Assembly (NCBI GenBank): GCA_030539515.1
Contig: JAUNXZ010000001.1
Coordinates: forward strand, 1 to 41,665
DNA: 41,665 bases
Origin: Thermoplasmata archaeon
Lineage (GTDB): Archaea; Thermoplasmatota; Thermoplasmata; Methanomassiliicoccales; Methanomethylophilaceae
Reading direction: 5' to 3'
The notes beneath the pieces were generated by a model. It saw nothing but the letters and a program-made list of their open reading frames with translations. It did not search any database and was not told the DNA's origin. The translations under genes were made by a program, and so were the position numbers. Shown here piece by piece: positions 278-41,665 of the stretch (positions are counted from its first letter, which is position 1; each line of letters begins with the position of its first letter).

Positions 278-1075
278 TCGGTGGCGGTCGCCGTAGCAGT
301 CGGTGCCACGCACCCCGGCCTCGTCGCACAGCGCGTCCAGCACCTCCACCGCCTCGGGGGACGGGCGTATGCCCATGCGCTCCAGCCTGCGGGTGTCGAC
401 GAGCCTGAGGTTCAGCCCGTCGCGGTACACGGCGCGGATGCCCGCCGCGACGAGGGCGTCCACAAGCTCCGCCTCGGAGCCCTCCAGCGTGGACATGACC
501 GGGGCGACGAGCGCGTAGGTCTCGACGCCGGCGTCGAGCAGCCCCGTTATGGCCCGCAGCCTCGCCTCCGGCAGCGGCGCGCCGGGCTCGGTCATCTTGG
601 ACACCCGGTCGTCCACCGTGGTGACGGTCATGCCAACCACCGAGTCCATCCCCGAAAGCAGATCGAGGTCCCGCAGGATCAGGTCCGACTTGGTGTGGAT
701 GTGGACGCGCCTGCCCTTCGCGGAGAGGACCTCGAGGCACTGCCTGGTGAGCCTGAAGCGGCGCTCGGCGCCCTGGTACGGGTCGGTGACGGTGCCGATG
801 CCGATCGTCCCGTCCACGTACGGCAGCTCCCTGCAAAGCCTGTCGATGAGGTTCCTCTTGACCCTCACGACCCTCCACTCGGACAGCTCGGAGTGCGTGT
901 GCCCCGGCGCGTAGCAGTAGATGCACCCGTGCTCGCATCCCCCGTAGGGGTTGATCGCGTAGTCCATCTCCGGGAGCCCGGACGGCGAGAGCGCCCTGGA
1001 GCACTCGACGAGCCTGAACGGCCCGTCCCACTCCGGGGGCTCCCCGGTGAAATCGCCCAGCGTGGTGTCGGTAAT
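278..1075 (-). CDS. Radical SAM protein, spore photoproduct lyase-like / DNA-repair associated
   Basis: NPYGGCEHGCIYCYA (CxxxCxxC), GTVTDPYQ and HTKSDL motifs. The frame is open and family-like (CSRALSPSGLPEMDYAINPY) upstream of the first ATG (967) to about ATT at 1075, so the start is uncertain. End placed at CGA 278-280; standard TAA at 242-244. Confidence 0.8.
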
Positions 1076-2345
1076 AGTCCTCGATCCTCCTCTGGACGCG
1101 CCAGTCCCTCATCACGTCGGAGTTCGCGATCCACCCGTCGCGCTTGATGTCCATCATGGATTCGACCCTTGTCAGCACGTCGTCCATGGTCTCGAAGTGC
1201 TCCGGCTCCGTGCGGAGCGCGGCGCGCACGTTCTCCCTCACGTTCCACACGCCGACGGGCATCACGTAGCCCGGATGGGCCTCCCTCATTATGACCGCGC
1301 CCGCCGTGCGGCCCTCCTCGATGAGCAGCTCGTTGACGGCCATCCTCGACGCGTAGTAGCATCCGCCGATGTGGGCGTACTCCGTCCTCCCGTCGAAGAA
1401 CTCGGAGTCGTGGATGACGTCCACGGTCCTGCCGGAGGGGTTCCATGTGGTGTTCGGGTACCACGCCTCGATGAGCTCGAACCTCCAGGTGCAGGGCATC
1501 AGCATGATGGCCCACCTGTTGTCCAGCTCCTGCCAGGTGTAGAGGCGGAAGTCGTCGATGGTGGGGTTCCACTTGGTCGTCTTGAGGAGATCCTTCCCGA
1601 TGATGTCGTCCACGGCGGTGATGCTCCACCTGGTGGGGACGAAGCGCCTGCGCTTGTCCACGCCCATGGTCCCCACGGAGAAGGCCTTCTGGATCTCGGA
1701 GATCAGGGTGCCGTTGCGGTACGCGGAGACCACCGCGTCGGTGGCCTTCATGTCCACGTCGTAGAAGCTCCTCTCCAGGTTCCTCTCGAACCTGCCGTTG
1801 CCGAGGGTCATCTGCTCCATGCGCGCCGACGGCCCGAAGGGCTCCACGTTGTCGTCGAGGATGACGCGGCCCTTGGGCTTCTGGGCGAAGGAGGCCTCCA
1901 CGTCCACCGGGCGTTCCGTGAGCGCGAGCTCCTGCACGTTGTCCACGATGCGGCCGTACTTCCGGAAGTCGGTGGCGTCGATGCGGTACTTCCCGCGGAC
2001 CAGGCGGAACCTGAAGTCCACGATCTCGTCGATGCTCTTGCCGACCCAGCGCTCCGGGGTGCCCATGATGGAGGTGTCCCCGAACTCCGGCGGGAGAAGC
2101 GGTCCGATGTCCACCTTCGGGTAGCCGTACCTGCCGACGAAGACGGCGGGAGGGCTCGAGCCCGCCAGGTCCTTGGCGTCGATGAGCGGGCGGGCCTTCA
2201 TCTGGGAGTAGAACTTGATCATCAGGGGGCAGCGGTCCTTGCCGCAGAGCCTGTGGGCGCCCTTGCATATGGAGCACAGGCCGCTCTTGAGCTCGGCGCC
2301 GTTGTAGGCCGCCGACTGCTCGAAGAAACCCGTTGCCGTGACCGT
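1068..2345 (-). CDS. nreA: Nre (NreA) archaeal PCNA-interacting DNA repair protein
   Basis: Absent from the ORF track because it has no standard stop. N-terminal CSICKG..LCGKDRCP zinc finger, GSSPPAVFVGRYGYPKV, VPTRWSITAVDD, GGCYYASR, PVGVWNVRENVR, and C-terminal PIP-like QRRIEDYY followed by CGA (1068-1070). Start is non-canonical (ACG 2345/2339/2333 or frameshift). Confidence 0.9.
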
Positions 2346-2581
2346 CCCGACTCCCCCTCATCACGGGATGCCGAACGGGGATAAAAACAGTGAGCGGGAA
2401 GAGGTAAGCAGGAGCCGGTTCGGAATCTCTTCCGTTGCAAGGGGACCGGTCCCTGCTATGATTTCGGGATTCCCTCAGAGTTAAAATAACTTTTCGCGAA
2501 TCTCGGGTTAACGGCGTTGATATTCCTGAAAGCATGGGATTAAAGCCTGTTAATATAGTGCAATCAGGATATCTCCCGGAA

Positions 2582-4153
2582 TCATCTGGCCTTGGCGGGA
2601 ACGCGGCTCGCCGCCACTCCGGCGGATCCCTCGCGGGAGACCGGGACGAGGTCCATGCCGAACAGGCGCCTGAAGTCCGGGCGGAGCTTCTCCAGGCTCC
2701 AGATCTCCATGCTGGCGTCCTCGTCCGAGGACAGCTCCAGGACCACCGTGTCCTTCTCGACCCTGAGCCTCCCGCTGCGGACTGCGCCGTTCCTGTGCCT
2801 GTCCATGACGTCCGCCATCTTCAGCAGCATGGCGCACACGCGGACGGCGGCGGCCTCGTCCTTGGGCATCCCGTCGAACCTGGAATCCTTGGGGCCCGGG
2901 AACTTCTTGTGGTGGAACCTGACTATGAGGCCCATGTCGCGGGTCTCGTCGTAGGTGAACCCCTGGAGGTCCGCCTTCTCAATTATGACCTGGGAGAGCA
3001 CGCTGTGGTTCTGGTAGCTGATGAGCTCGCCGATGTCGTGCAGGATCGCGGAGCAGGACAGCAGGCTCCTCCACTGGGCGTCCAGCGAGTGGAGCCCGAG
3101 CTCCCTGGACTGGTCGAACAGCGAGAGCGCGTTCCTCTCCACGTTCTCCGCGTGCCTCCTGTCGTACTGGCAGCGGTACGCCAGCGACCGGACGGAGGAC
3201 TGGCGCGCGCTGAACGAGGTGAACCCGCGGGAGAGCTGGTGGTCCAGCATCATGCCCTGCTTCAGGCCGTTGGGGCTGACCTCGATGCGCTGGATCCCGA
3301 ACTGGAACATGAGCTCCTCGGCGATGGCCCCGCCGGGTATGATGATGTCCGCGCGGCTCTTGCCCATCCCGGGAACGGCCAGCCTCTGCTTGGCGGTCAT
3401 CTGGCGGAGCTCCTGCATCAGGGGGTGGAGCTCGTCGAGGGTGAAGTACGACGCGTCCCTGTCGGCGCGGCGGGCGGCGCACATCTCGGCGAGGGACAGC
3501 ATGGTCCCCGAGGAGCCCATGGCGCGTTTGAATCCTATGGAGCGGACCTTGCTGACCGCGCGGTAGGACGAGATGTCCACGCTGCGGAGCATGTACTCGT
3601 AGTCGCCCTGGGAGACGGGGCCGGAGCAGTCGATGTCCAGGCCGAAGGCGTAGCGCACCGCGCCCATGCTGAGGCTGTCGATGAAGATGTCCTCGCCCTT
3701 CTCGCGGATGATTACCTCGGTGCTGCCCCCGCCGATGTCGAGCTCGATGGTGCGCTCGTCGGGCCCCCTGTCGCCGAAGACGCCGAGGGCGATGAGCCTG
3801 GCCTCCTCCGGGCCGGGGATGACCTTGAGCTCGACGACTCCCTCCAGGGCGTCGACGATCTCCTGGCGGTTCTCCGCCTCGCGGGCGGCGCAGGTCGCGA
3901 AGGCGACCACGCGCTCCGCGCCCAGGTCCCTGGAGATCTGGGCGAACCTGGAGATCACGAGCACCGTCTTGTCTATGGACGGGCGGTCGATCCTGCCGGT
4001 GCCGTAGAGGCTCCTCCCCAGGCGGACGGACTCCTTGTCCTGGTAGATGGCGGTGCCCGACGTGTCCGGGTAGAACCTGACCACCAGCAGGTGGATCGAG
4101 TTCGTGCCGACGTCGATGAACCCGACGGTCTCAGGACTCGTCTTCTCCGCCAT
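2582..4153 (-). CDS. ppx: Exopolyphosphatase Ppx/GppA family with HD domain
   Basis: IDVGTNSIHL, ATCAAREAEN, EEARL, DIGGGSTE, RADII and LHDIG motifs; overlaps ppk1 in an operon. Confidence 0.93.
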   Translation of the reverse strand: MAEKTSPETVGFIDVGTNSIHLLVVRFYPDTSGTAIYQDKESVRLGRSLYGTGRIDRPSIDKTVLVISRFAQISRDLGAERVVAFATCAAREAENRQEIVDALEGVVELKVIPGPEEARLIALGVFGDRGPDERTIELDIGGGSTEVIIREKGEDIFIDSLSMGAVRYAFGLDIDCSGPVSQGDYEYMLRSVDISSYRAVSKVRSIGFKRAMGSSGTMLSLAEMCAARRADRDASYFTLDELHPLMQELRQMTAKQRLAVPGMGKSRADIIIPGGAIAEELMFQFGIQRIEVSPNGLKQGMMLDHQLSRGFTSFSARQSSVRSLAYRCQYDRRHAENVERNALSLFDQSRELGLHSLDAQWRSLLSCSAILHDIGELISYQNHSVLSQVIIEKADLQGFTYDETRDMGLIVRFHHKKFPGPKDSRFDGMPKDEAAAVRVCAMLLKMADVMDRHRNGAVRSGRLRVEKDTVVLELSSDEDASMEIWSLEKLRPDFRRLFGMDLVPVSREGSAGVAASRVPAKAR

Positions 4154-9029: not shown

Positions 9030-9030
9030 G

Positions 9031-11489: not shown

Positions 11490-12530
11490 ATGAAGATCAA
11501 GTCCATACACGTCTCGAAGCTGTTCAACGAGTACGACTACGACCTCGACCTGTGCGAGGGCCTCACGTTCGTCCACTCGCCGAACGGGATGGGCAAGAGC
11601 ACCCTCATGAGGATGGTCTACGCGGCTCTCCGCGGGGACGTCGGGTACCTGAGGGACACGCCCTTCGAGAGGATGGACATCGGGTTCGACGAGGGCTCCG
11701 TGCTCATCATCGAGAACTACCCCGGCAGCATGCTCGTCCAGATGAGGAGGAGCGAGGTCGACACGCCCATGTCCCCCTCGGACATGTCGCAGATCTGCGA
11801 GGCGGTGTACATCGCCCCGGACAGGATGCTCATGAAGAGGAAGGACGGCCACCTGGCGCCCACCCTCGAGGTGTTCGCCCAGGAGCTCCTGGAGACCATC
11901 AGGTACGCCAAGGAGCACAGGGAGCTGGAGCCCCACCCCAGGGACGACGTCCCGGACATGCCGGACGGGGACCTGGAGTTCTGGTGCAAGGACCTGAAGG
12001 CCAAGCTGGACTTCATCAAGGACGCCGGCTTCGAGCCGGACATACCCGCGGGCAAGAAGTTCCCGCCGTCCAGGTACGAGATCGGCAAGGACCGCGCCGG
12101 GTACGAGGAGCTGGCCTGCTCCGTTGCCGACTACGTCGAGCGCAACTACCTGCTCGCCGAGTCCATCATCATCTACAAGGACGTGGTCAACGAGATCTTC
12201 ATCAACAAGACCATCACCGTCTCCGACACCGGGAAGATCGGGGTCAGCATGAACAACGGCACAGCGCTCCAGGTCCAGAAGCTCTCCTCGGGGGAGAAGC
12301 AGATCCTGGTGCTCTTCTACGCGCTGCTGTTCCACGCCCCGCAGGGCTCCGTCGTGATCCTCGACGAGCCCGAGATCTCGCTGCACGTGAGCTGGCAGCA
12401 GAAGCTCGGGGACTACTTCCGCGACATCTGCCGCGTCCGCGGCATCCAGATGATCGTCGCGACGCACTCGCCCCAGATCATCCACGACAAGTGGGACTCC
12501 GCCAGGGAGCTGAGGCCGTCCGATGCGTGA
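11490..12530 (+). CDS. ABC-type ATPase (AAA_15/AAA_21-like; AriA/OLD-like)
   Basis: Walker A HSPNGMGKST, signature LSSGEKQ, Walker B ILDEPEISLH, H-loop ATHSP; no adjacent permease. Confidence 0.88.
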   Translation: MKIKSIHVSKLFNEYDYDLDLCEGLTFVHSPNGMGKSTLMRMVYAALRGDVGYLRDTPFERMDIGFDEGSVLIIENYPGSMLVQMRRSEVDTPMSPSDMSQICEAVYIAPDRMLMKRKDGHLAPTLEVFAQELLETIRYAKEHRELEPHPRDDVPDMPDGDLEFWCKDLKAKLDFIKDAGFEPDIPAGKKFPPSRYEIGKDRAGYEELACSVADYVERNYLLAESIIIYKDVVNEIFINKTITVSDTGKIGVSMNNGTALQVQKLSSGEKQILVLFYALLFHAPQGSVVILDEPEISLHVSWQQKLGDYFRDICRVRGIQMIVATHSPQIIHDKWDSARELRPSDA

Positions 12531-13386
12531 GTACCTCACGTCGGAGGACATCTGCAACCAGCTCTGCATGGAGAGGACCGTCTTCGACGGCGTGTTCCTC
12601 GTGGTGGAGGGCATAACGGACAGCAGGCTGTTCGGGAAGTTCGCCGACAGGGACGGCGTGCAGATACACATCGCCCACTCCAAGGACAACGTGCGCAACG
12701 TGGTCCGCGAGATGTCCGGAAAGCGCAGGGACGACCGCACCATGGGCATCGTCGACCCGGACCTGGAGAGGCTCCGCGGCCGGTCCGCCAAGCCGCCCAT
12801 GTTCTACACCGACTGCCGCGACATGGAGATGATGATCATCCGGAGCAACGCGCTGGACGACGTCATCGACGAGTACGGGGACAGGGAGAAGGTCGAGAGG
12901 TTCGAGGAGCGCGTGGGCCCGATCAGGGATGCGCTGATCTCGGCCAGCTACCCCGTCGGGATGCTGATGTACGTTTCGCAGACAAGGGGGCTCAACCTGA
13001 GCTTCAAGGACCTGGACTTCTCCAGGTTCATCAACGCCCAGACCCTGAGCCTGGACGCGTCCGCGATGGTCAACGAGGTGCTGGCCAACTCGCGCTCGGT
13101 CCGCGTAGGGAGGAAGGAGATCCTCAGGACGCTGGACATGGAGTGCGGCCAGCTGGACGACATGTGGAAGGCCGCCAGGGGCCACGACACCGTGGACATC
13201 CTGCTGATCGGCCTGCGCCGCGGTTTCGGCGGGTTCAACGCCTCCGGGCTGAACGAGGGCGAGCTGGGCGGTGCGCTCAGGCTCGCGTTCTCCGACGCGT
13301 GCTTCGCGGAGACGGACCTCTACAAAGACACCGACGCCTGGGCCGCGGAGGCCGGCGTGGTCCTCTGGACGCTCAATCGGAGCCGA
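12523..13386 (+). CDS. DUF4435-like TOPRIM-fold protein (AriB-like)
   Basis: TOPRIM-type VVEGITD and GIVDPD, plus RDMEMM and RGHD; coupled to the ATPase by overlap. End at CGA 13384-13386; standard TGA at 13396-13398. Confidence 0.75.
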
Positions 13387-15588: not shown

Positions 15589-15589
15589 C

Positions 15590-19358: not shown

Positions 19359-22293
19359 CCTCAACCCCTCCCAGGAGGCCATCGCGACCACCCTGGACGG
19401 GATGGTCGTCGTGGATGCCGGGCCCGGCACCGGGAAGACGCACACCATCGTCCAGCGCTACATCAACCTCATAACGAGGGACACGGGGGACGAACCTGCG
19501 GTCACCCCGCGGGACGTGCTCCTCCTGACCTTCACGCGCAACGCCGCGGCGGAGATGGAGGAGCGCATCAAGCGCGAGATGTCGAAGGAGGGTATGGCCG
19601 AGGAGGCCAAGCTCGTCCAGGTGCTCACGTTCGACGCGTTCTGCCTCTCCGTGGTGATGGAGTCCCCGTACGACGCCGGGAGGCTCTTCGGCATAGACGA
19701 GAGGCTCACCCACTCGGTGCGCCTGGTGGAGAACGACACCCTCAACAGGAACCACTTCACCTCGTTCCTCGAGGTGTTCCTCGACTCCCGCGGCGAGGAC
19801 TACGGCGACAGCGCAATAGTCTGCTCCCAGATCCCTGGGGACCTCTACGCGTTGATCGGCCGCCTCATGTCCCGCGGCATCTTCCCGCTGAAGCGCGGGG
19901 GATGGTTCGGCGGCAGCGACGGCAAAGAGCTCGTCGGGGATACCGCGGAGCTGCTGGCGAGGATGAGGTCCCGCAACGAGGTCTCCGGGAGGGCGAAGTC
20001 GTCCGACATGCGCAAGGCCCTGGCCTCGCTGAAGCCCCTGGACTGCGACCCGCTCCCCGAGATCGGGGAGGACGCATGCCTCGACGACTCGATACTCGTG
20101 TCGGCGGCGGAGGACGACCGCTCCGAGCTGCTCCGCCTCGTCCACGACGTGTACTGGGAGTACATCCGCTCGTCGATGGCCGACGACCGCCTCACGTTCG
20201 GTCTGAACGCGATGCTGGCGTTCTCGGTCCTCTACAGCAACCCCGGCGTCAGGAAGCTCAACTCGTACCGCTACGTGATGATAGACGAGTTCCAGGACAC
20301 CAACGCCAGCCAGCTCATGATGGCCCTGATGATGCTGAAGGAGCCCAACCTCTGCGTGGTTGGCGACTGGAAGCAGGGCATCTACGGGTTCAGGTTCGTC
20401 TCCATCGAGAACATAACGGAGTTCGAGAGGAGGACGGTGGAGCTCAGGAGGGTGCTCAACGACGACCTGGTCAGGGTCGAGTTCTCCCTCCCGGAGGCCG
20501 TACGCCTCCATCTCGACATGAACTACCGCTCCTCGCAGCTCATCGTGGACCACGCGTTCAGGTGCCTGCGCCTCAAGGGCAACAAGCAGGACGAGCCGGA
20601 CCATGCGAAGCTGGACAGGACGGTGAAGCTGATCACCGCCGCCAGGGACCCGGACATAGCCGGCGACACCCGCGTCCGCTTCGTGAAGGCCGCGTCCAGG
20701 GATGACGAGGCCATCGAGGTCGCCAGGTGCGTCAGGGACTACGTCGGATCCGGGAACTACACGGTGCACGCCAGGGACGGCGCCCGCCCCCTGGGGTACG
20801 GCGACATCGCCGTGCTCTGCAGGACCACCCAGGGGTGCAGGAACGTGGTGGAGCGGCTGGCCCAGGAGGGCATACCCGCCTTCCTCCAGGGCGACGTGGA
20901 GATCATGGCCACCCGCGAGGGGAAGCTGCTGCTCGCCTGGATGCGCTACGTGAGCAACGAGAGGGACGCCTGGGGCTACGCTCCGATACTCGCCGACCTC
21001 GGCTACCCCCCGTCCTTCATCGACCGCGTCTGCAAGGGCGAGGCGGCGATGCCCGCGGAGATCGCCTCCCAGAGGGAGTACCTGTTCAGGAAGAGGCGCC
21101 GCGTCACCGAGATGATGACCTCGGTCTACGACTGGTACGGCCTGGACAACGACGTGACGCAGGCGATAGTGAACGTGCTGTCCGCCGCGCACAGGGACTC
21201 CCTGCTCACCATATCCGACCTCATCGCCATGATCGACGGCGACCTGTCCTCCGGGAGGAGGACCGTCTACCCCGTGGACGCGGAGCTGGACGGCGAGGCC
21301 GTCATAGTCACCACCATGCACAAGGCCAAGGGCCTGGAGTTCCCCGCGGTCATCATCCCCTACGTGGACACCCGCGTCATGCCGTCCTCCGGGACGGACA
21401 CGTCGGACATCTGGTTCGACTCCGTCGCCGGGGTACGCTGCTCGAGGACCGTCGGCAGGTTCGAGGGGTACTCCAAGCTGTGCAGGTCCTGGAGGACCGC
21501 CCTCGTCAGATCCACGGTGGAGAGCGACTACGACGAGGAGCGCAGGCTCATGTTCGTCGCCATGTCCCGCGCCATGCAGTACGAGACCGTGATCTGCGGG
21601 CCCAAGCCCTCCCAGTTCATGGTCGGGCTCTCAAACGACCTGTACGAGGCGATCCCGGACGCCGAGGCCCCGCCCGCATCCGTGAGCGACGGCACCGCGC
21701 CGAGGCCGGACCTTTCCGGCTACACCGTCAGGAAGCAGAACGTGGGCGTCCACTCCGTGATGCGCTTCGACGAGCAGACCGTGATAGACCAGGAGTCCGG
21801 GTCGGACGAGATCTGCGGCAAGGGGAAGGAGTACGGCACCGCGGTGCACGAGGAGGCCCAGGCCATGGACCACGGCGTGCCCCCGTCGGGGAGGTACCCC
21901 GAGGCGGAGTACATCCGCGACAGCGTGCTGTCCAGGAAGTCCCTGGACGGCTTCCTCCGCTCGTACTCGGAGATAGAATGCACCCTGCCGGTGCGCCCGT
22001 CCGGCGTCTGCCTGAAGGGCGTCATAGACCTGATGCTCCTGTACGAGGACCGCGTCGAGATCCACGACTACAAGACCGACGTGTCGGACAGGTTCCAGCC
22101 CGAGTACGTGCTCCAGCTGTCGGTGTACGCGCACGCCGCCGCGGGGTACTACGGCGGGAGGCTGCCGGTCAGGTGCTACATCGACTACGTGTCCCAGGGC
22201 AGGACGGTGGAATTCGACCCCATGCCCCTGGAGGACGTGGAGACCCTGGTCGGAGGCCGCCTTTCCTCCCAGAATACCGTCGCGAACCTGCGA
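19351..22293 (+). CDS. AddA/UvrD-like SF1 helicase with C-terminal PD-(D/E)XK nuclease (980 aa)
   Basis: AGPGTGKT, LLTFTRNAA, IDEFQDT, VGDWKQGIYGFR, NYRSS, TMHKAKGLEF, EERRLMFVAMSRA, GVIDL..HDYKT..QLSVY. End at CGA 22291-22293; standard code runs to 23193. Confidence 0.9.
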
Positions 22294-22327: not shown

Positions 22328-24925
22328 ATGAAGGGACTGACCTCGGCGGAGGTTGCGGAGCGCAAGGCCCAGGGCCTTGTGAACGACTCCGAGGTGAAGA
22401 CCAGCAGGACTTACACCGATATCTTCCTGAAGAACCTGCTGACGCCGTTCAACATCGTGCTGTTCATACTGGGCATCCTGCTCCTGATCTGCCAGGAGCC
22501 CATCAGCGCGGTATCCGCCACTGGGATCATCATCGTGAACATCCTGATCTCCACCGTCCAGGAGATGCGCGCGAAGCGCCGCCTGGACAAGATCTCCCTG
22601 CTCACCAGGCCGAAGGTCAAGGTGTTCAGGGACGGCGCAGAGGCCGAGGTGGACCAGTCCGAGGTCGTGAAGGACGACGTCGTCATCCTCCGCGCCGGGG
22701 ACCAGGCCGTCGTGGACGGCGTCATAGAGGAGTGCAGGTCGCTGGAGATGGACGAGTCCCTCCTCACCGGCGAGTCCAGCACCGTCAGGAAGAAGGCCGG
22801 CGAGCCCATCTACTCGGGCGCGAACTGCGTCACCGGAGAGGCGTACTACACCGTCACCGGCTTCGGGGCCGACTCGTACGCGTCCCAGATGCTCAGCAGC
22901 GCCAAGAAGTTCACCTCCAAGAAGACGCCGCTGGAGATGGAGACCGGCACCGTCACCAAGATGCTGATGGCGATCGCGGCCATCCTGTTCATCATCACGA
23001 TATTCAAGTCGGTGTTCGTCACCCACGAGAGCTTCTCGCAGACCCTCCAGGTCTTCGTGCTGTGCCTCGACGTGGTGCCCATCGCGCTGTTCCTGCTCAT
23101 AACGCTGACCTACATGATCGCCGCCGTTCGCATGGCCGACTCCGGGGTGCTCCTCCAGAGGACCAACTCCGTCGAGTCGATCAGCCACGTTGACGTCGTC
23201 TGCATGGACAAGACCGGGACGATCACCACCAACAAGCTCCGCTATGAGAACTCGTGGGACCTGGTGTCCCCCGTGGAGGCGGAGCACCTCATCGCGGTGT
23301 TCGCGTCGACCACCGGGAGCAGGAACCGCACCGTGGACGCCCTGGCGAACAGGTACGGCACCGCGGACGCGGAGCTCCTGGAGGAGATCCAGTTCTCGTC
23401 CGAGCGGAAGTACAGCGCCGTCCGCGTGAGGGACGGGGGGAACGAGTACAACCTCTACCTCGGGGCCCTTACGTCCCTGAAGGACCACATGGACACCGAC
23501 CAGGACATCGCCACCCACGTCGACGCCGAGTCCCGCAAGGGCCTCAGGACCGTCCTGATCTGCAGGGGCCCCGCCGTCCCGCTCCACGATGCGGACGACG
23601 AGCCGGTCATCGGCAGGATGGAGCCCGTCTCCGTCGTGTCCATACGCGACGAGGTCAGGCCGGACTGCAGGGAGACCATCCAGGTCTTCATGGACAACGG
23701 CATGCAGCTGAAGGTCATCTCCGGGGACGACCCCGTCACCGTGGACTCGCTGTTCACCATCGCCGGCATCCCCGGCGAGAGGAAGATCGTCTCCGGCCCC
23801 GAGCTCGACGCGATGAGCGAGGCGGAGTTCACCAAGGCCGCCCTCGAGTGCAACATCTTCGGCAGGATGAAGCCGGAGAACAAGGAGCACGTGATCGAGG
23901 CCCTCAAGAACAACGGCCACTACGTGGCCATGATCGGGGACGGCGTCAACGACGTCAAGTCCCTGAAGACCGCCCAGGTGGGCGTGTCCCTGGAGTCCGG
24001 CGCGGGAGCCGCGCGCGGGGTGGCGGACATGATCCTGGTGGGCGACAACTTCTCGGCCCTGCCGAAGGCCCTGGTTGAGGGCCGCAGGACCGTCTCGGGC
24101 ATGAGGGACATCCTCAAGCTCTACCTCACCCGCAACTTCTGCCTGGCGCTGCTGTTCGTGGCGATATTCGTGCTCTTCGGGAACATCCCGATGATCCCGA
24201 TCCAGAACACGTTCTACGCGTTCATCTCGGTGTCCATCATGGCGTTCTTCATGACGCTGTTCGCCAAGCCGGACGAGAACAAGGAGCTGATCCTGCCGGA
24301 CGTGCTGCGGTACTGCGTCCCATCGTCGATAATGATCGCTGCCTTCGGCCTGCTGGTCTACGGGCTCGCCTGGTACGGCGTCTCCCACGGGACCCTGGTC
24401 GTGGACTGGGCGGCGATGGTCGAGACCATCGGCTACAGCGGGACCGCCGAGCAGCTCATCGCCTCGCTCTCCTGGAACGGATCCGGGGAGGCCGAGATCG
24501 TCGCCAGGACCTGCATGGTGCTGTTCGTGACGTTCGCCGGGCTCTTCCAGATATTCATCATCTGCCCCAGGTGGAAGATCTTCTCCGTGGACGGCAGGAC
24601 CAACAAGAGCCTGGTGCCCTTCGTGATCACACTGCTGATCATCGGGCTCGTCATGGCGATGTACCTCTACTTCCCGAAGCTCGCGGTGGAGTTCATCGGC
24701 TTCGCGCTGCTCCCCGGCTACTGCTACGCCGCCATACTCGGCTTCGTGGTAGTGCTGATGGTGCTGGAGCTGCTGGTCCTCAGGACCAACCTCTTCAAGC
24801 ACGTCATCGAGAGGTTCGAGGAGTACTACATGAGGAAGCTGGACGAGGAGTACAGCGAGGGCGACGTGAGGGAGGAGACGGGGGTCAAGGTGAAGATCCC
24901 CCTGGACAAGTTCCCTCGTCCCTGA
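22328..24925 (+). CDS. P-type ATPase (CtpE-like architecture)
   Basis: DESLLTGES, DKTGTIT, FSSERKYS, VISGD, GDGVND; about 10 TM helices. Confidence 0.93.
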   Translation: MKGLTSAEVAERKAQGLVNDSEVKTSRTYTDIFLKNLLTPFNIVLFILGILLLICQEPISAVSATGIIIVNILISTVQEMRAKRRLDKISLLTRPKVKVFRDGAEAEVDQSEVVKDDVVILRAGDQAVVDGVIEECRSLEMDESLLTGESSTVRKKAGEPIYSGANCVTGEAYYTVTGFGADSYASQMLSSAKKFTSKKTPLEMETGTVTKMLMAIAAILFIITIFKSVFVTHESFSQTLQVFVLCLDVVPIALFLLITLTYMIAAVRMADSGVLLQRTNSVESISHVDVVCMDKTGTITTNKLRYENSWDLVSPVEAEHLIAVFASTTGSRNRTVDALANRYGTADAELLEEIQFSSERKYSAVRVRDGGNEYNLYLGALTSLKDHMDTDQDIATHVDAESRKGLRTVLICRGPAVPLHDADDEPVIGRMEPVSVVSIRDEVRPDCRETIQVFMDNGMQLKVISGDDPVTVDSLFTIAGIPGERKIVSGPELDAMSEAEFTKAALECNIFGRMKPENKEHVIEALKNNGHYVAMIGDGVNDVKSLKTAQVGVSLESGAGAARGVADMILVGDNFSALPKALVEGRRTVSGMRDILKLYLTRNFCLALLFVAIFVLFGNIPMIPIQNTFYAFISVSIMAFFMTLFAKPDENKELILPDVLRYCVPSSIMIAAFGLLVYGLAWYGVSHGTLVVDWAAMVETIGYSGTAEQLIASLSWNGSGEAEIVARTCMVLFVTFAGLFQIFIICPRWKIFSVDGRTNKSLVPFVITLLIIGLVMAMYLYFPKLAVEFIGFALLPGYCYAAILGFVVVLMVLELLVLRTNLFKHVIERFEEYYMRKLDEEYSEGDVREETGVKVKIPLDKFPRP

Positions 24926-26044: not shown

Positions 26045-26734
26045 ATGCGCTACGCGTGGACGAAGGAGGCGGAATTCGTCTCGAGGCCCAACAGGTTCGT
26101 CGCGGAGGTCATCCTCGACGGAGTACGGGAGAAGGTCCACGTGAAGAACACCGGCAGGTGCAGGGAGATACTCGTGCCCGGGACCCGCGTCGTTCTGTCC
26201 GATTCCCGGAACCCGGGCAGGAAGTACCGCTACGACCTGATAGCCGCATGGAAGGGCGACCTGCTGATCAACATAGACTCCCAGGCCCCCAACAGGGCGT
26301 TCCACGAGCACATCCTCCGCGGGGAGGTGTTCGGGCCGCCTTCGGTCGTTCACCCGGAATGCACCCACGGGGACTCCAGGTTCGACTTCTACGTCGAGTC
26401 GGGGGACCGCAGGATATTCGCCGAGGTGAAGGGCGTGACGCTGGAGCACGACGGGGTGTGCAGGTTCCCGGACGCTCCGACGGAACGCGGTCTGAAGCAC
26501 GTCAGGGGGCTCGCGGAGTGCGTGACCGAGGGCTATGAGGCCTACGCCGTGTTCGTGGTCCAGATGGGACGCATGACGCTGTTCGAGCCCAACGCCGACA
26601 CCGACCCGGACTTCGCCCGGGGGCTGGCGGAGGCCGAGGACGCGGGCGTGAGGGTGCTGTGCCTCGGATGCGACGTGGAGCCGGACTCGATGGACATCTC
26701 GTACGGGATACCGCACAGACTCACTCGTAGTCGA
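26045..26734 (+). CDS. sfsA: DNA/RNA nuclease SfsA
   Basis: RPNRF, HVKNTGRCRE, SRFDF, EVKGVTL, FPDAPTERGLKH. End at CGA 26732-26734; standard TGA at 26785. Confidence 0.93.
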
Positions 26735-28676: not shown

Positions 28677-29078
28677 ATGCCCGGATACACGGAGCTGACG
28701 GTCCGCACGGCGGAGAGCGAGATGGTCGACATCACCGAGCGGGTGCGCCGCGTCGTCCGCGAGAGCGGCGTGACCGAGGGCTACGTCTTCGTGTTCTCCG
28801 AGCACACCACGGCCGGGCTGACCATCAACGAGAACGCGGACCCCGATGTGAAGACGGACATGCTGTACGGACTCGAGAAGGCGTTCCCCGTGAGGCCGGA
28901 GTACCGGCACGCCGAGGGGAACTCCCACGCCCACCTGCGCACGTCCTGCGTCGGGCCGTCCGTGACCGTGATAGTCTCCGGCGGCGAGCTGGTCCTCGGG
29001 ACCTGGCAGGGCATCTACTTATGCGAGTTCGACGGACCCCGCACCCGCACGGTTGCGGTCAAGGTCACAATGGGTCGA
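28677..29078 (+). CDS. yjbQ: YjbQ/UPF0047 family protein (133 aa)
   Basis: HTTAGLTINENADPDV, HAEGNSHAH, LGTWQGIYLCEFDGPRTRTVAVKVTMG, then CGA at 29076-29078. Confidence 0.92.
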
Positions 29079-32477: not shown

Positions 32478-33947
32478 TCGGAAATCGAATAGGCTGCGCT
32501 GGTTCTTCGGCCTAGCAGGAGGCTCGGGAGCAGGCTTGGGAGGCTCCGGGACGGCCTTCGGGGGCTCGGGGGCCACGGGGGCATCGATGCTCGCCGGAGC
32601 CGCCCTCGGCGCCTCGGAGCGGGCCTTCTCGGCGCGCTCCTCCATGAACTTCTCGGCGGCGGCCATCGCGGTCTTGACGTCCTTGGAGTCAGGCTTCTTC
32701 CTTATGAGCATCGCCAGCTCGTCCTCGTCCAGGCAGAGGTCCGCCACGAGCCCGGGGCGGACCTTGGGATCCGCGGACGCAAGCATGGACAGCATCGGGA
32801 TCACGTCGGAGTCGGCGCGGTCCGGCGTCGTGTGCATGGCGACGGCGATCTTGTACGAGAGCGTCCCGCGGGTGCCGCGGACGCCCCTGCTGCGGGACAT
32901 CCTCATCATGTAGGACGGGAAGCGCATCCTCTCGCGGCCGCAGCGGTCAGACATGCGTGCGGTTACGAGACCGAAGGACATGAGGTCCGACGCGTAGGAC
33001 CAGAAGCCGTAGTACTGGCGCCTGCTCACGCGTCCGAGGTACATCGCCGAGCGGGAGAGCTTCTCGTACCCGCGGACCAGGTCCCCGGGGTCCACGTACT
33101 CCGTAGGCAGGTTCTCGTCTATCCACAGCAGCTTGGTGGCCGGGTCCTCGTCCACCTCCGCCAGCGCCCTGCGGGCGACGGCGGGGTCCCTGCTGCGGAA
33201 CACGGCGGAGAGCATCGAGAACAGGTCGGTGCGCACGTCCCTGTGGGACAGGCCGTCGGACATGTCCTTGGTGACTGAGGACTCGCCGATCGCCATGGAC
33301 TCCAGGTTGCGGACCGCCGCGCGCATGTCGCCGGAGGCGTTCTCCGCTATTGCCTTCATCGCTTCGGGGTCAACCTCCACGCCCTCGCGGTCCGCTATGA
33401 GGTAGAGGGCCTTGGCGATGGTGGCGGACTGCGGCTTCTTGAAGACGATCTGCAGCGTCTTGTTCTTGATGGCGCTGCTCTTCCTGCTCACGGCGTAGAA
33501 GTCGTTGACTATGAGTATGACCGGCTGGAGCGTCGATGTGATGAGCTCGTTCACCACGGGCATGGCGCCGCGGTCGCTGTTGCCGAAGAAGTTGTCCGCC
33601 TCGTCGAGGACGATGAGCTTCCTGCCGCCGGAGGACGCGTCCCCGTAGGAGCCGTCGCTCCCGAAGGTGTTGAACCTGGAGCCGCGGAGGGCGATCCCCT
33701 CGATGGCGGAGGCCTTCCTCTGGTCGGAGGCGTTCATCTCCACGATGTCCCACCCCATCTCGCGGGCGAGCGCCTCCGCGGAGGTGGTCTTCCCGACCCC
33801 GGGCGGCCCGATGAGCACCACCGCGCGCATCTCCGGTATCCCGGACTCCCAGGCCTTCGCCCAGGCGCGCAGGGTGTTGACCGCGCTGGGGTTCCCGACG
33901 ACGCCGTCCAGCGTCCTGGGGCGGTACTTCTCCGTCCAGTCGCTCAT
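32478..33947 (-). CDS. rfcL: Replication factor C large subunit
   Basis: WTEKYRP, GPPGVGKTT, EMNASDQR, LDEAD, GDMRAAV, WIDEN, Pro/Ala linker and C-terminal PIP box QRSLFDF followed by CGA-TGA-TAG. Confidence 0.96.
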
Positions 33948-34423
33948 CGGTCCTCCGGGGAGTAGGCGTAGCGCAGGATGTCCATGCACTGGTAGAAGTA
34001 CACCGCCACGTCGAGGAACATGGTGAAGACGGTCTGGGCGCGCCAGGACCAGTCGTTGAGGTACCAGATCACGACGGTCATCACGAGGAACATCGCCCCG
34101 CGGGCGTACTGCTTGAGCACGAAGTGCCCCAGGCCGAATATGTTGAAGAAGCCCGGCAGCAGCGCCAGGCCGATGGCCAGCGTCCCGTTCTTCCGGAGGT
34201 TCGGGACCATCATCGGCATCGGGGCGCTGTCGGGGAGGGCCGTCCCGCAGGTGCCGCAGAAGCGGTCGCCCGGGTGGTACGGCTCGCCGCACGCGGGGCA
34301 GGCGTTGCTCACGTAGCCCTTGTCGTCGAATAGGAACGCCTTGTCCTTCATGCAGCCGCAGTGGGGGCAGAAGTCCATGTCCCCGTCTATCTCGTTGCCG
34401 CACTCGGAGCAGACGTACCTCAC
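33947..34423 (-). CDS. Double zinc-ribbon membrane protein
   Basis: GTG start overlapping the ABC gene stop; CSECG..CPHCG..CPACG..CGTCG, TM segments with GLGHF; ends CGA-TGA overlapping the rfcL ATG. Confidence 0.8.
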
Positions 34424-35223: not shown

Positions 35224-35255
35224 GATGATGCGATGCGCGCGAGGTATTAATGCCC

Positions 35256-35549
35256 TCGCGCGGGCTTCGCATTCTTGACGCACTTGTCGATGGCGATGAG
35301 CAGGCTGGCGACCTGCTCGCCCGCGGGCGTGAGCGTCACTATGGTGGAGCGGGTCACCACGTCCATCTCCTGCTCGAGGAGGCCCAGCTCCTCGAGCAGG
35401 TTGAGCTTGTCCGGCATCCTGGGATTCGAAGACACGCCGTCGTAGATGTCGATCTTCCTGCTGGGGCCGTTGGCCGACAGGAATGTGAGGATCGAAATCA
35501 TGTGCTTCTCCTCGAGAGCCGTCACGCTGGCGGTGTCCTTGCGATTCAT
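35256..35549 (-). CDS. Small winged-helix DNA-binding protein
   Basis: LEEKHMISILTFL..KLNLLEELGLL..VTLTPAGEQVA pattern. End at CGA 35256-35258; standard TAA at 35247. Confidence 0.75.
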
Positions 35550-35645
35550 TGTGTCACCCTGCGTACACACATAGTGCGATACGCAGTTGCCACTATGCGA
35601 CGAACTATTTAAGCTCTGTTCACTGCCAGAACATAATAGTCGAAA

Positions 35646-37410: not shown

Positions 37411-37576
37411 GAATGTCACCGATGTGTTCCGTGCTAGCAATTAGCACGCTTACGCGCTCATGACCTGTCGCGTACTTAAAATATATCGTCCGCTCGGGGG
37501 GCCGGAGGGCCGCCTGAGGCCGGATACCCCCTGCGGGTAGAGGAATCGCGCCTGTTCCGAGTCGGAACGGGCAATG

Positions 37577-37584
37577 TATTATTA
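37577..37584 (+). promoter_or_regulatory. TATA-like box for SRP RNA
   Basis: TATTATTA about 22 nt upstream of the predicted 5' end of the SRP RNA. Confidence 0.55.
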
Positions 37585-37605
37585 GGTTGAGTGAAATCAG
37601 GGGTC

Positions 37606-37914
37606 CGTCTGGCTTGACCGGGGCGCTTGGCGTGCCCTATACCCGAAATCGTCAATACGCGGGGGTGACAGCAGGGGACGGCCCCGCTGAACATCACAAG
37701 CCCACAGAGCGACAATGAAATCTTGTCCTGCAGAGTCGGAGTTTGCGCCGAATGCGACCGGAGGGCCGCAGTTCACGCATCAACCGGGGGAACCGGGTCA
37801 GGTCCTGACGGGAGCAGCCTCACCTCGGACTACTGACGTTTGCGGGATCGCAGGGTCGAGGAGCGAAGTGGCAAACTTGTGGTCGGATGCAGGGACAACC
37901 CCTGTGGCCAGGCG
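37606..37914 (+). ncRNA. ffs: Archaeal signal recognition particle RNA (7S)
   Basis: Terminal helix CGTCTGGC/GCCAGGCG; Alu domain with complementary loops TTGGCG/CGTCAA; helix 6 GCGACC-GGAG-GGCCGC; helix 8 TCAGGTCC-TGAC-GGGAGCAGCC; about 310 nt. Ends approximate. Confidence 0.92.
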
Positions 37915-37923
37915 CTTCTCCGC

Positions 37924-38904
37924 TCAATGAGCGTTTGGCCTGCAGCCCGTTATGATCTCGGTGCCGAAGTCGAAGACCGTGGCGGTCTCCTTCCCATCCG
38001 TTATCTTGAGAACCGATGTGTCGTCCACCTTCCCGACCACTGCGCCCCTGCAGGAGACCTCCTCGAAGATGTCGATGATCTCCTGGGAGTTCTCCGGGGG
38101 GCATGCGAAGCAGAACCCGCATCCCTGGTAGGCGAGCACCCATCTGACCGGGTCCGCGTTCTCGGGCGAGGGTATCCTGGTGACGTCGACGGTGGCGCCG
38201 ACTCCCGAGGACTCGAGCATCATGCCTAGGGTCCCGATGCTGCCGGGGTTGCTCATGTCCTTGCACGAGTGGGCCAGGTGCCTCTCGCCGACCACGGCGG
38301 CGGCCTCCATCTGCGCCCTCACGAGCTCGTCGGGCTTGTCGACCGTGGTGACGAACGCGTAGGGCAGGTGGTCCGGGTAGAATCCGTCGGTGTCTATCAC
38401 GAACACGATGTCGTCGCCGGGCCGGGCGGTGCTGCTCCTTAAGAGCGCGTCCTTGGCGACCTTGCCGACGATGGAGATGTCGATGGCGTTGTAGTGGCAG
38501 TCCGGGTGCACGTGGCCTCCCACGATCGGCACTCCGAACTTGCGGATGCCGTCCTGCATCCCGCGGATGATCTCCCTGCACACGTTGCCGTGGACGATGG
38601 ACATGACGTCCACCATGCCGAGGGCGCGACCTCCCATGGCGGCGATGTCGTTGACGTTGACGAGAACGGCGAAGTACCCCGCGTAGTAGGGGTCGGTGCT
38701 CACGAGGGACTCCATGATGCCGTCCGCCGCGAACAGGATGTACTGGTCGCCCACGTCGATGGCCGCCGCGTCCTCGCCCTCTGCGGCCGCAACCTGCGGG
38801 AACCCCGTGGTCGGCAGCAGGTCCACGATCTTGTGGATGGCGTGCTTCCTGGTCACGCCGGGGTAGGTGCGGATGGCCTCCGCGATCTCTCCGATCGACG
38901 CCAC
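37924..38904 (-). CDS. Methanogenesis marker 2 protein (AIR synthase/PurM-like)
   Basis: YPGVTRK, GEDAAAI, LVNVNDIAAMGG, VGGHVHPD, KDMSNPG. GTG start with AGGAGG upstream. Confidence 0.85.
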   Translation of the reverse strand: MASIGEIAEAIRTYPGVTRKHAIHKIVDLLPTTGFPQVAAAEGEDAAAIDVGDQYILFAADGIMESLVSTDPYYAGYFAVLVNVNDIAAMGGRALGMVDVMSIVHGNVCREIIRGMQDGIRKFGVPIVGGHVHPDCHYNAIDISIVGKVAKDALLRSSTARPGDDIVFVIDTDGFYPDHLPYAFVTTVDKPDELVRAQMEAAAVVGERHLAHSCKDMSNPGSIGTLGMMLESSGVGATVDVTRIPSPENADPVRWVLAYQGCGFCFACPPENSQEIIDIFEEVSCRGAVVGKVDDTSVLKITDGKETATVFDFGTEIITGCRPNAH

Positions 38905-39839
38905 AGGCCCTTCCTCCTGAGGCCCCATATGGACAGGGCGCACAACGCGACCATGGCCACCAGAAGCACCACGTACATGTACTCGTAGTGCTCGCCGGGA
39001 AGGCTCACGTTCATGCCGTAGAAGCTCGCCAGCATCGTGGGTATGGCGATGATTAGAGTGATCGACGTCAGGAACTTCATGACCAGCGCGAGGGAGTTGT
39101 TCAGGTCCGCTTCCACGAGCTGCCTGGTACCCTTGATGATCTGGCTGTACGTCATGGTCATCTCCAGAGCCTGGTTCGTCTCGATTATCACGTCGTCCAT
39201 GAGGTCCCTGTCCTCAGGCGTGGAGACGAAGCGGGACTGCTTGCTCATCCTCTCGATGATCGAGGCGTTCACGGACAGCGACGTCTTGAAGTAGACCAGG
39301 TTGGACTCCAGCTCGTGCAGCTCGAAGAGGTCGTCCCTGCGGGTCGCCTTGCGTATGGACTCCTCGATGGCCATCCTCTTGACCTCGATGTACTTGAGGT
39401 CCGTCTGGTAGTTTATCGCGATCCTGAACAGGATCTGGAGCACGAACCTGGCGCGGTTCGACACGTCGAAGACGCTCTTGCTCTTGCTCTTGCCCGAGGT
39501 TATGTTGGTGAGGGCGAAGAGCTCCTGCAGGCACACGGTCACGATGGCCGTGTCGGTGACGGTGATGGATACCGGGTACGTGGTGAACTCCTCGCGGCTG
39601 TTCCTCCACTCCCTCGTGGGCGCGTCGACGAGGATCAGGGTGTAGTCCTTGGAGACCTCGGTCCTGGATCCCTCCTCGTCGTCCAGAGCGGACGTCAGCG
39701 CCTCGCGGTCTATGCCGAGGAACCCCTGCACCAGGTCTATCTCCTCGGAGGTCGGCGCGACCAGGTTGATCCAGACGTCCTCCTTTATCTCGTCCGTGCG
39801 GACGGGGCGGCCGTCCACCATCTCGTAGATCTCCATCAT
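38895..39839 (-). CDS. corA: CorA family Mg2+/Co2+ transporter
   Basis: WINLVAPT, ALDDEE, MKFLTSIT, FYGMNV signature, two C-terminal TMs ending LRRKGLWR then CGA (38895-38897); standard TGA at 38853. Confidence 0.93.
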
Positions 39840-39854
39840 TCCCTTCTCACCTCC

Positions 39855-41465
39855 TCACACAACCATTGCGAGTATGACCAGCAGGAACAGGAACAGCACC
39901 ACCGTGGAGACGCTCCCGGCTATGCTGTCGGTGAGCTTCCTGCGGCGCTCCTCGTCCCCGATCCTGAGCTTCTCGAGGAACCAGTTGACTCCTCCCGCGA
40001 ATATGAAACCTCCGTCCAGGACGTAGGTCGGCAGGGCGTTGGATATCGCCAGCAGGATGTCCAGCCAGAATATCCAGTACATCAGCTTGATGAACACCCA
40101 CGTGAGGTCGCCACCGGGGGCGTCGTACCACCACTTCACCTCGTCGGAGATGGGGTCCATGCCGTTGAACGGCCCCGAGAGGTAGGAGAACAGCGACGTG
40201 ACATAGGAGTACGGGGTGCTGACGTTGTAGAACGGGTTGACCGCCGCCTCCATCAGGAGGTCGGGGGTCGTGAACGTGAGTCCGGACATCGTCGTGGTCA
40301 CTCCGAGGAACCCGATGGAGTTCCTGGTGCTCAGCGTGACGTCGTAGTCCGTGGTCGTGTACGTGCCCTCGGAGTCCATCACGGACACGGTGGTGACGAC
40401 GATCTGCTCGCCTCCGGACGTGGAGGACATGAGGTCGGTGAACGTCTGGTAGCCGTCGATCTTCGTGGTGGTGCCGTTGATCGTGATGGAGTAGATGAAC
40501 GACCCCGCGGTGATGCCGGCGTTGTTCGCTCCGGAACCGCTGGTGACGGCCTTGATGTACAGTCCGAGCTGCACCAGCCCGGATTGGTGGGTCCCGTCCT
40601 CCAGCATGTACGTGACGTAGTACCGTTGGGTCGGGTCCAATGGGTAGTCTATATAAGCGGCGCTCCCGGAGGTCACCGTGCTCAGGGTTCCGTTCTGGTT
40701 CCCGTTGACATCGGTCCCGACGAGCAGGTTCCCGTCGGCGTCGGATATCCCGATTATGAGCGCGGATGCGGGGATGCCGGCGTCGTAGGCCGGGGAGTCC
40801 GCGTCCACGTAGTAGACGCCCGCGCTGTCCCCGTAGTCGGAGGACACGAAGCTGCAGGCGAACACCATGAGGATGATGCTGATGACCGCGAACACGGTGT
40901 TCACGGTGATCCCCGCGGCGTAGACGTCTATCTGCGCCTTGCGGGGCTTGGTGGCCATCTCCTCCTCGTTGGGCTCGACGAAGGCTCCGAGGGGCACCAC
41001 GCCGTAGAGAAGACCGGAGGAGTCGACGTGAATGCCGTTGACCCTGGCCTGGATCCCGTGGCCCAGCTCGTGGACCACCATGGCGAAGAACAGCGCGACC
41101 ACGCCGTAGCTCAGCGGCATGATGGGGTTGAACCCGGGGATCGCCAGCGCGTACTCGATGCCGATCGAGGATCCGGACGCCAGCCTGCTGGGGATGGCTA
41201 TGACGGCCACGATGAGCATGTACATCATGAGCAGGAACAGGACCGCCGAGATCAGCTTCGAGCAGAAGCCGAACGCGTGCCAGAACCGGGGGTACCGGGC
41301 GAAGCGGTCCATGGTCTTCATGCCCAGCTGCGTCTTGATCATGATGCAGGGGCCGTACTTCTGGAGGTGCCACCTGGCGGCCCTCTCGGGATTGCGCCAG
41401 ACCCACACCCAGATCGGAATGTAGACGATGAGCAGTATCAGCAGTACAAGATAGGCGGTGCTCAT
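39855..41465 (-). CDS. Site-2 protease (M50) with PDZ-like domains
   Basis: HELGH zinc motif, GAFVEP, AGITVN, NALPTYVLDGG. Confidence 0.92.
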   Translation of the reverse strand: MSTAYLVLLILLIVYIPIWVWVWRNPERAARWHLQKYGPCIMIKTQLGMKTMDRFARYPRFWHAFGFCSKLISAVLFLLMMYMLIVAVIAIPSRLASGSSIGIEYALAIPGFNPIMPLSYGVVALFFAMVVHELGHGIQARVNGIHVDSSGLLYGVVPLGAFVEPNEEEMATKPRKAQIDVYAAGITVNTVFAVISIILMVFACSFVSSDYGDSAGVYYVDADSPAYDAGIPASALIIGISDADGNLLVGTDVNGNQNGTLSTVTSGSAAYIDYPLDPTQRYYVTYMLEDGTHQSGLVQLGLYIKAVTSGSGANNAGITAGSFIYSITINGTTTKIDGYQTFTDLMSSTSGGEQIVVTTVSVMDSEGTYTTTDYDVTLSTRNSIGFLGVTTTMSGLTFTTPDLLMEAAVNPFYNVSTPYSYVTSLFSYLSGPFNGMDPISDEVKWWYDAPGGDLTWVFIKLMYWIFWLDILLAISNALPTYVLDGGFIFAGGVNWFLEKLRIGDEERRRKLTDSIAGSVSTVVLFLFLLVILAMVV

Positions 41466-41531
41466 CGTTTCTCCCCGAGCCGTGTGATGCCCTTATCCTA
41501 TAAAACAGGGTTGTGGCTCCGCTCAACTGTG

Positions 41532-41665
41532 TCGGGGACGCACCACTTCGAGGCCGACCAGCATCCCGATTATCTCCTCCGCCCAGCGGAGCTTGCGGAG
41601 CTTCACCGACGGGTCGGAGCCCTCCTTGGGCGTGGGGTTCAGGAAGTCGAACCCCTCCAGGACGA
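41532..41665 (-). CDS. 3' end of an unidentified CDS entering from beyond the window
   Basis: Open frame ...VLEGFDFLNPTPKEGSDPSVKLRKLRWAEEIIGMLVGLEVVRP, then CGA (41532-41534); TGA three codons later. Confidence 0.6.

Follow-up and report, generated by a model that had tools for sequence, protein, structure and literature searches.

Can CGA, an arginine codon of the standard code, serve as a stop codon on an archaeal chromosome? The question is raised by a stretch of 41,665 nucleotides (the window, contig C73 of GenBank assembly GCA_030539515.1, a genome referred to here as G000) in which an earlier note, made from the letters alone, had seen an in-frame CGA at the expected end of 12 genes and had proposed that it terminates translation there. 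The assembly of G000 is 1.68 Mb long with a GC content of 64%, consists of 186 contigs, is 82% complete and carries about 1,600 genes. A tree of eight proteins encoded around the gene for the release factor aRF1 places it in the Methanomethylophilaceae (Methanomassiliicoccales), in a same-genus clade that includes a record titled Candidatus Methanoprimaticola sp. (L214) and is adjoined by clades with records titled Methanomethylophilus (L177, L179) and Methanogranum (L185, L189, L246). The observation made in the window is real and clade-wide, and it is highly probable, as far as comparison of sequences can tell, that CGA ends proteins in these organisms. The mechanism that we favour is termination at CGA by aRF1, in competition with tRNA-Arg(UCG) and with programmed leaks, to which we would give a probability of roughly 0.7; CGA would then best be called a leaky or dual stop, and likely a fourth stop codon.

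Behaviour of CGA across the genome

The behaviour of individual codons in G000 was examined by scoring the 30 codons that follow an in-frame test codon preceded by 60 coding-like codons, with CGA and the stop codons set neutral. Of 274 in-frame CGAs only 8 are followed by persisting coding signal, as are 42 of 1,072 TGAs, compared with 50-86% for sense codons (eleven were scored, rare ones included; AGT stands at 49%). When a gene model based on codon usage is allowed to split reading frames at CGA, 301 of the 1,482 complete genes end at CGA, 1,114 at TGA and 67 at TAA, with a further 109 genes cut by contig ends. Overlap of a terminal CGA with a following start, as CGATG, is found at 37 of the 301 CGA ends, and the 1,114 TGA ends include 161 ATGA and 15 TGATG overlaps. 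Under translation table 11, 105 of the CGA-ended genes would gain more than 50 codons, and in 75 a canonical stop lies within five codons.

A non-circular test is provided by aligning G000 to proteins of G131, a genome of the same family that uses the standard code, of which 400 kb was used and which alone forms our independent standard-code reference set. None of the 4,260 aligned arginine codons in 231 G000 genes is CGA. The earlier note had named CGA commonly present at conserved internal arginine columns as one of the findings that would speak against it; at the 2,377 columns that are arginine in both genomes, CGA does not occur in G000. In the same alignments 29 of 189 G000 ends are CGA, 22 of these being within three codons of the G131 stop, against 124 of 150 for TGA, and the next canonical stop beyond the CGA ends lies a median of 19 codons further. 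With G000 proteins as references, CGA accounts for 0 of 5,295 arginine codons in G012 (same genus, 454 kb), 0 of 3,875 in G060 (another genus, 400 kb) and 211 of 3,788 in G131; with G131 proteins as references, one internal CGA each is found in G012 and G060. Of 36 CGA-ended G000 genes that align to their end in G012, the corresponding column is TGA in 16, CGA in eight, TAA in one and something else in 11.

The absence of CGA from aligned arginine codons and the collapse of coding signal after it, as after TGA, point to CGA behaving as a terminator both in the genome at large and in a clade of relatives, which supports the reading that the earlier note gave for the window. Since the codon has been purged from gene interiors, stop would be its default meaning, unlike that of codons which are sense by default. 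An initial codon count on long open reading frames (686 CGAs, spread over 167 of 571 seeds) was dropped because antisense shadow frames contaminate it, and the windowed model and the homology counts were used instead.

Five internal CGA candidates were found across G000. One, at C143:2919 on the minus strand, lies between two sugar-pathway-like domains, which by their motifs are presumably GmhA and GmhB; another, at C29:6466 on the minus strand, is shortly before the end of a phosphatase gene, presumably SpoIIE-like by its motif. Coding-like sequence continues beyond both, and a programmed fusion, a recent transfer or a broken gene are possible in each case. Among relatives, a G060 gene for a 138-residue protein (C1:4142-4507) contains one internal CGA, at about codon 31 and at a column that is arginine in G131, and three genomes otherwise free of CGA (L094 (G007), L095 (G018) and L231) carry one inside a gene close to aRF1 that encodes a winged-helix-like regulator of about 350 residues. 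As to the base that follows, A comes after 20 of the 301 terminal CGAs and 223 of the 1,114 TGAs of G000.

The sites in the window

All 12 CGAs of the window are present where the earlier note had placed them (Table 1; gene names are those of that note, with orthology checked by tblastn). Eleven of the 38 genes modelled in the window end at these codons and the twelfth codon ends the partial last coding sequence. At 11 of the 12 sites G012 has TGA, TAA or CGA no more than three codons from the expected column: TGA or TAA for radical SAM, nre, DUF4435, AddA-like, yjbQ, rfcL and the last coding sequence, and CGA, within two codons, for sfsA, zinc-ribbon, wHTH and corA. For the remaining gene, at 24916, tblastn found no orthologue in the stretches of G012, G017, G060 or G131. 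Four sites carry little weight by themselves, as TGA directly follows the CGA in rfcL and zinc-ribbon and a canonical stop lies three to four codons on in wHTH and DUF4435. Under table 11 four of the genes would extend by 136 to 560 codons into other genes.

Table 1. Terminal CGA codons of the window, with the state of the same column in related genomes
Feature	Position	Strand	Gene and comparison
Radical SAM gene end CGA	278..280	-	gene 278-967; TAA in G012, about 3 codons earlier; CGA in G017, 2 codons earlier (by extrapolation of the alignment)
nre end CGA	1068..1070	-	gene 1068-2222; column TGA/TAA in the majority of 30 loci and CGA in six of the same genus (L001, L002, L011, L012, L013, L027); table 11 adds about 355 codons, to contig end
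DUF4435 gene end CGA	13384..13386	+	gene 12523-13386; G012 TGA two codons earlier; canonical stop 4 codons later, weak alone
AddA-like gene end CGA	22291..22293	+	gene 19351-22293; G012 TGA two codons earlier; table 11 adds 300 codons overlapping next gene
Hypothetical gene end CGA	24916..24918	-	gene model only
sfsA end CGA	26732..26734	+	gene 26045-26734; G012 CGA two codons earlier
yjbQ end CGA	29076..29078	+	gene 28677-29078; G012 TGA same column; table 11 adds 136 codons
rfcL end CGA, then TGA	32478..32480	-	gene 32478-33947; G012 TGA same column
Zinc-ribbon gene end CGA	33947..33949	-	CGATG overlap, A of CGA being the A of the rfcL start; G012 CGA same column, then TG
wHTH gene end CGA	35256..35258	-	G012 CGA two codons later
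corA end CGA	38895..38897	-	gene 38895-39839; G012 CGA same column, protein 92% identical
Partial last coding sequence end CGA	41532..41534	-	G012 TGA same column; table 11 adds 560 codons across next gene

In one of the six CGA-ended nre loci the stop overlaps the start of the next gene as CGATG. The radical SAM frame appears to start inside the end of nre (967-1100, minus strand; L001-L013), where a stretch D-T-T-L-x-D/E-F is conserved, and a swap of TGA and CGA at the nre stop is synonymous (threonine) in that frame. Four genomes (G016, G020, G023 and G010; L004-L007) have two tandem copies of nre.

Distribution within the Methanomethylophilaceae

The distribution of the trait was surveyed in 140 loci, nearly all of them around aRF1. 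Related genomes and loci are kin and not independent, so that the clade counts given here describe and do not test. Internal CGA is used in all 15 loci examined from six other families, and also in the basal genera of the Methanomethylophilaceae. The CGA-free loci sit in one clade with support of 1.00, and this clade also holds nested lineages that use CGA (g23, G085, L234, L226), of which g23, G085 and L234 look like revertants, together with four intermediates; G122, L189 and G080 are of the intermediate kind. The pattern holds in complete genomes as well. On a tree built without aRF1 there are at least four changes of state among 108 rows, which could represent either one gain followed by three reversals or repeated gains. 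Sister lineages would include standard, ambiguous and apparently reverted codes, and possibly one finished reassignment, in G091. The first stop-like codon is CGA at 71 of 918 ends in recoded loci and 10 of 333 in standard loci, with a background of about 3%, and TAG at 4 of 918 and 56 of 333, respectively. The presence of only 5 CGAs among 17,031 arginine codons of the recoded class is circular, as the class is defined by that count. In L180 CGG is the main arginine codon (160 of 285) and there is no internal CGA; its relatives differ.

The release factor gene and its internal CGA

The gene for aRF1 was compared between 77 recoded and 31 standard loci, classed by their other genes, the recoded set having been de-duplicated by dropping 15 twins and loci with fewer than 90 arginine codons. 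Exactly one CGA is found in 74 of the 77 recoded aRF1 genes, two in one and none in two. In 75 loci it lies in the part encoding the N-domain, and none occurs beyond that domain. The codon occupies seven different columns, chiefly 20 residues after the NIKS motif (38 loci) or 33 (28 loci) or 47 (six loci) before it; these are arginine columns, and the reading frame is open across the CGA. The 31 standard loci have 62 CGAs, scattered along the gene. In the same genus the aRF1 CGA always has the context GCT/TCT-CGA-CTN, which might be a readthrough context.

If aRF1 stops at CGA, a lone early terminator that moves between arginine columns is what negative feedback on its own synthesis would predict. 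Of the mechanisms in the earlier note, an aRF1 that accepts C at the first position is the one favoured by this lone codon, although the essentially unchanged stop-reading motifs of the protein speak on the other side. Among its residues the one that best tracks the trait is alanine at the residue equivalent to human T122, present in 74 of 77 recoded and 2 of 31 standard loci (the numbering of this position and of L123 was derived from the Y-x-C motif and not from alignment to the human protein). It falls within a segment with a known influence on stop specificity (PMC3384315). No column, among those listed, reached significance with four independent pairs. A change from arginine to methionine or leucine seven residues after NIKS was dropped as a cause, being common to standard-like genera.

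The tRNA that reads CGA

tRNA-Arg(UCG) is present in G000 (C133:1324-1398). A strict pattern recovered it from 63 of 80 genomes, and a looser one, which admits a few chance matches, from 28 of 30; the strict pattern misses the tRNAs of G060-G062 and G064, which a shorter pattern found, and a miss is not an absence. The suggestion in the earlier note that decoding of CGA had been lost does not hold in that form, as the tRNA is kept in G000 and most relatives and readthrough must occur at the few internal CGAs that are conserved. Its shape is nevertheless altered in the same genus, where all 17 matched tRNAs, read by eye, have either a mismatch between positions 31 and 39 (12, G000 included) or C at position 33 (five), against 0 of 16 in outgroup families. 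Position 37 does not separate recoded from standard groups, and no tRNA-Arg(GCG) was found in G000. A subgroup of loci with C33 (L083, L084, L094, L095, L099, L100, L101) is nearly without CGG, which makes up 0-2 of 95-224 arginine codons.

The NifH-NifD-like linker and G091

A second conserved place for an internal CGA is found in three paralogues of G000, in which the codon separates the part for a NifH domain (PF00142, residues 3-270) from that for a nitrogenase component 1 domain (PF00148, residues 304-663). All three of these CGAs are followed by A, again a possible context for readthrough. The linker is poorly conserved. Of the 12 best orthologues 11 have its CGA, as do 14 of the 20 stretches compared. 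The codon is absent from the standard-code genomes G141 and G030 and was not seen in three more distant homologues, for which a stretch of 241 bases may miss it. In G091, the twelfth of these orthologues, the linker has TAG, aRF1 is without CGA, and CGA stands at 7 of 12 gene ends; no match to tRNA-Arg(UCG) was found in its assembly, which is 87% complete. From these features G091 would look like a finished reassignment. A single in-frame TAG was observed in four NifH-NifD-like fusion genes (G091:C18, G014:C1, G063:C1 and G018:C7), that of G091 being located in the linker.

Proposed mechanism

On the reading that we favour, ribosomes would terminate at CGA by default, with aRF1 reading the codon, and such default termination would account both for the purging of internal CGAs and for the free exchange of TGA and CGA at gene ends. 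The retained tRNA-Arg(UCG), predicted to be weak, would insert arginine on a minority of ribosomes, and the cell might use this leak at a few chosen conserved sites. At the CGA in the N-domain of aRF1, full-length release factor would be made only when aRF1 is scarce, and at the NifH-NifD-like linker the products would be free NifH and a smaller amount of the fusion protein. Termination at CGA in competition with tRNA-Arg has a precedent in yeast eRF1, where it is weak and is enhanced by arginine at L123, according to the available text of PMC7379694. We consider it somewhat better than even that the code of the clade as a whole has this form, with CGA as a fourth stop read by aRF1, its arginine meaning surviving only as programmed readthrough that sets the level of aRF1 and the ratio of NifH to fusion, and G091 having finished the process by loss of the tRNA while its linker leak moved to TAG as pyrrolysine.

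Several points weigh against this reading. The NIKS, GT and Y-x-C motifs of aRF1 hardly differ between recoded and standard relatives, and NIKS not at all; the arginine that recoded aRF1s have at the L123 position is also found in standard relatives; and the alanine at the T122 position, with four independent pairs, is not significant and serves as a lead only. The anticodon arm of the tRNA looks intact in the recoded G060-G062, G064, G055 and G058, so that damage to the tRNA would not be the general cause. In G000 itself aRF1 is assembled as its C-terminal piece only and its CGA is presumed from relatives, the codon being present in the closest of these (G017, G105 and G012). G043 appears recoded and has an aRF1 without CGA, the tRNA of G091 may be unassembled, and the proposal does not account for the internal CGAs at C29 and C143 or for a few in relatives. 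Finally, the positions and conservation of the codons and the presence and shape of the tRNA are observed directly, while termination, its agent, the leak and the purpose of the leak are all deduced from sequence, which we also count against the proposal.

Alternative explanations

One alternative is that CGA is a starved codon, at which a weak tRNA stalls the ribosome and a rescue system (pelota with aEF1alpha and peptidyl-tRNA hydrolase, or drop-off) then releases the completed chain. The purging of internal CGA, its terminal use, the damaged tRNAs of the same genus and the lack of a clear change in the stop-reading motifs of aRF1 would all fit. It gives no reason, however, for a lone early CGA in aRF1 that is relocated among seven columns, the tRNA arms are intact in other recoded genera, and rescue at one gene in five, with coupling through CGATG, would probably be costly; we regard it as unlikely. 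It is also improbable, in our view, that CGA is a true stop whose specificity comes from elsewhere, through a change in the ribosome, a lost modification of U34 in the tRNA, low tRNA expression or an accessory factor, such that an unchanged aRF1 wins by default. No aRF1 residue tracks the trait perfectly, repeated changes of state suit a tunable balance, and in yeast the wild-type eRF1 is itself able to read CGA weakly (PMC7379694). This explanation overlaps with termination by aRF1, differing in where the change lies, and no particular factor is supported, rRNA, ribosomal proteins and modification enzymes being outside the comparison.

Editing of the mRNA from C to U, which would make UGA of a terminal CGA and was among the mechanisms of the earlier note, is consistent with the exchange of CGA and TGA at the same columns but is disfavoured by two observations and seems very unlikely. 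In contigs assembled from RNA libraries of three studies C is kept at three of three sites of G060 (L069), namely the aRF1 CGA (X2) and the terminal CGAs at 11536 (X2, X3) and 19402 (X5); these contigs, for which all differences were listed, report the majority base at a depth of 4-22, with carry-over of DNA possible, and belong to another genus than G000. In G000 itself out-of-frame CGA is not avoided, with 9,089 occurrences in frame 2 and 33,101 in frame 3, A following NCG in 21-23% of cases and NCC in 25-28%. A further run, X1, was not used as RNA evidence, since its flat depth and 16-kb contigs suggest that it may be DNA.

It is less likely still that CGA is merely an avoided arginine codon and that the proteins carry C-terminal extensions. 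The existence of tRNA-Arg(UCG) and the 75 genes with a canonical stop close by would permit it, but a larger number would gain long extensions, CGA falls on the stop column of relatives, and coding signal continues beyond rare sense codons such as TTA in half of cases and beyond CGA in 3%. An artefact of assembly or base calling, with TGA misread as CGA, can practically be dismissed despite the fragmented and incomplete assembly of G000, as independent genomes carry CGA at the same columns, complete genomes show the pattern and such an error would not remove internal CGAs.

Relation to known systems

Sense codons that became stops are known from organelles, with AGA and AGG in vertebrate mitochondria, UCA in Scenedesmus and UUA in Thraustochytrium. 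As in these codes, a standard sense codon here ends genes and is absent inside them; unlike in them, the change concerns CGA on an archaeal chromosome of high GC content with some 1,600 genes, where the cognate tRNA persists and the codon still occurs at a few internal sites. CGA is missing from conserved coding regions and exchanges with canonical stops, and its sense decoding has not been fully lost, with the possible exception of G091. Bacterial RF2 is regulated by an internal UGA in its own gene that is bypassed by a +1 frameshift. An early in-frame terminator in the gene of a release factor is common to RF2, the eRF1-like factor of Mimivirus and Megavirus (PMC3521657, available text) and the recoded loci of this clade, where it is conserved, although it does not fall in the part of aRF1 assembled for G000. 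According to that paper, archaeal and eukaryotic homologues have no autoregulation of this kind. The frameshift itself has no match here: the terminator is a codon that formerly had a sense meaning, and its own tRNA would bypass it without a change of frame. The system resembles both the organellar codes and RF2 autoregulation and is a member of neither, because it retains the tRNA and its bypass would stay in frame.

Ciliates and Blastocrithidia have context-dependent stops that are sense by default and terminate only near the end of the mRNA; here stop would be the default. A further likeness is found in two assemblies of Njordarchaeales, also archaea without CGA in conserved domains, for which CGA as a stop was raised as a possibility (Melnykov, KACI, bioRxiv 10.64898/2026.04.02.715157). 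These belong to another order, lack the tRNA with UCG and read CGG as tryptophan; their gene ends are untested in that paper as far as its available text goes, and 'Methano' does not appear in that text. Misreading of CGA by yeast eRF1/eRF3 (Wada and Ito, PMC7379694, available text), similar in its competition with tRNA-Arg and its enhancement by L123R, is a low-level error on reporters, whereas here CGA is used genome-wide at gene ends. Genetic code 34, in which TAG is pyrrolysine, was described in the same family of organisms (Kivenson et al., bioRxiv 10.1101/2024.09.30.615893) and likewise involves an altered stop set and competition of aRF1 with a tRNA, in the opposite direction of stop to sense; 'CGA' occurs 0 times in the main text of that report. 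G000 itself has features expected of code 34, as it encodes PylRS (pylS above the cut-off at C37:11133-11804) and has TAG as the first stop-like codon at only 3 of 189 ends. Reassignments of arginine codons, CGA among them, were reported by Codetta (PMC8629427, available text) and differ in being sense-to-sense and bacterial. Both Codetta and KACI (bioRxiv 10.64898/2026.04.02.715157), in the text available, state that they cannot infer stop codons, and sense-to-stop codes would have been missed by these two large screens because new stops are by design beyond their detection.

Our literature search, which left subscription journals and bioRxiv supplements outside, turned up no description of CGA as a stop codon in these archaea, and none of the publications reached establishes a sense-to-stop change for a prokaryotic chromosome. 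If our reading is right, the need of class I release factors for U at the first position would be broken, and the regulation of aRF1 would be release-factor autoregulation in an archaeon. Living ambiguous intermediates, together with standard and apparently reverted sisters, would allow ideas on how codes change to be examined. In practical terms, table 11 would give false C-terminal extensions to about 20% of G000 proteins and to a smaller share in relatives, among them the genus from which a pyrrolysyl-tRNA synthetase in wide use is obtained. A foreign gene carrying an internal CGA would yield a truncated product, possibly raising a barrier to gene transfer and viruses.

Other observations

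Several records with bacterial titles (L202, L209, L212, L215-L217, L219, L221, L240, L243, L244 and L247) contain these archaeal aRF1 loci, and their titles therefore disagree with their sequence. In G000, ARAGORN reports an intron-containing tRNA with a TCA anticodon at C54:4907-5034, which is likely spurious, and contigs C89 and C90 carry the same pair of tRNA-Trp and tRNA-Arg(TCT), which may reflect a duplicated contig or a mix of strains.

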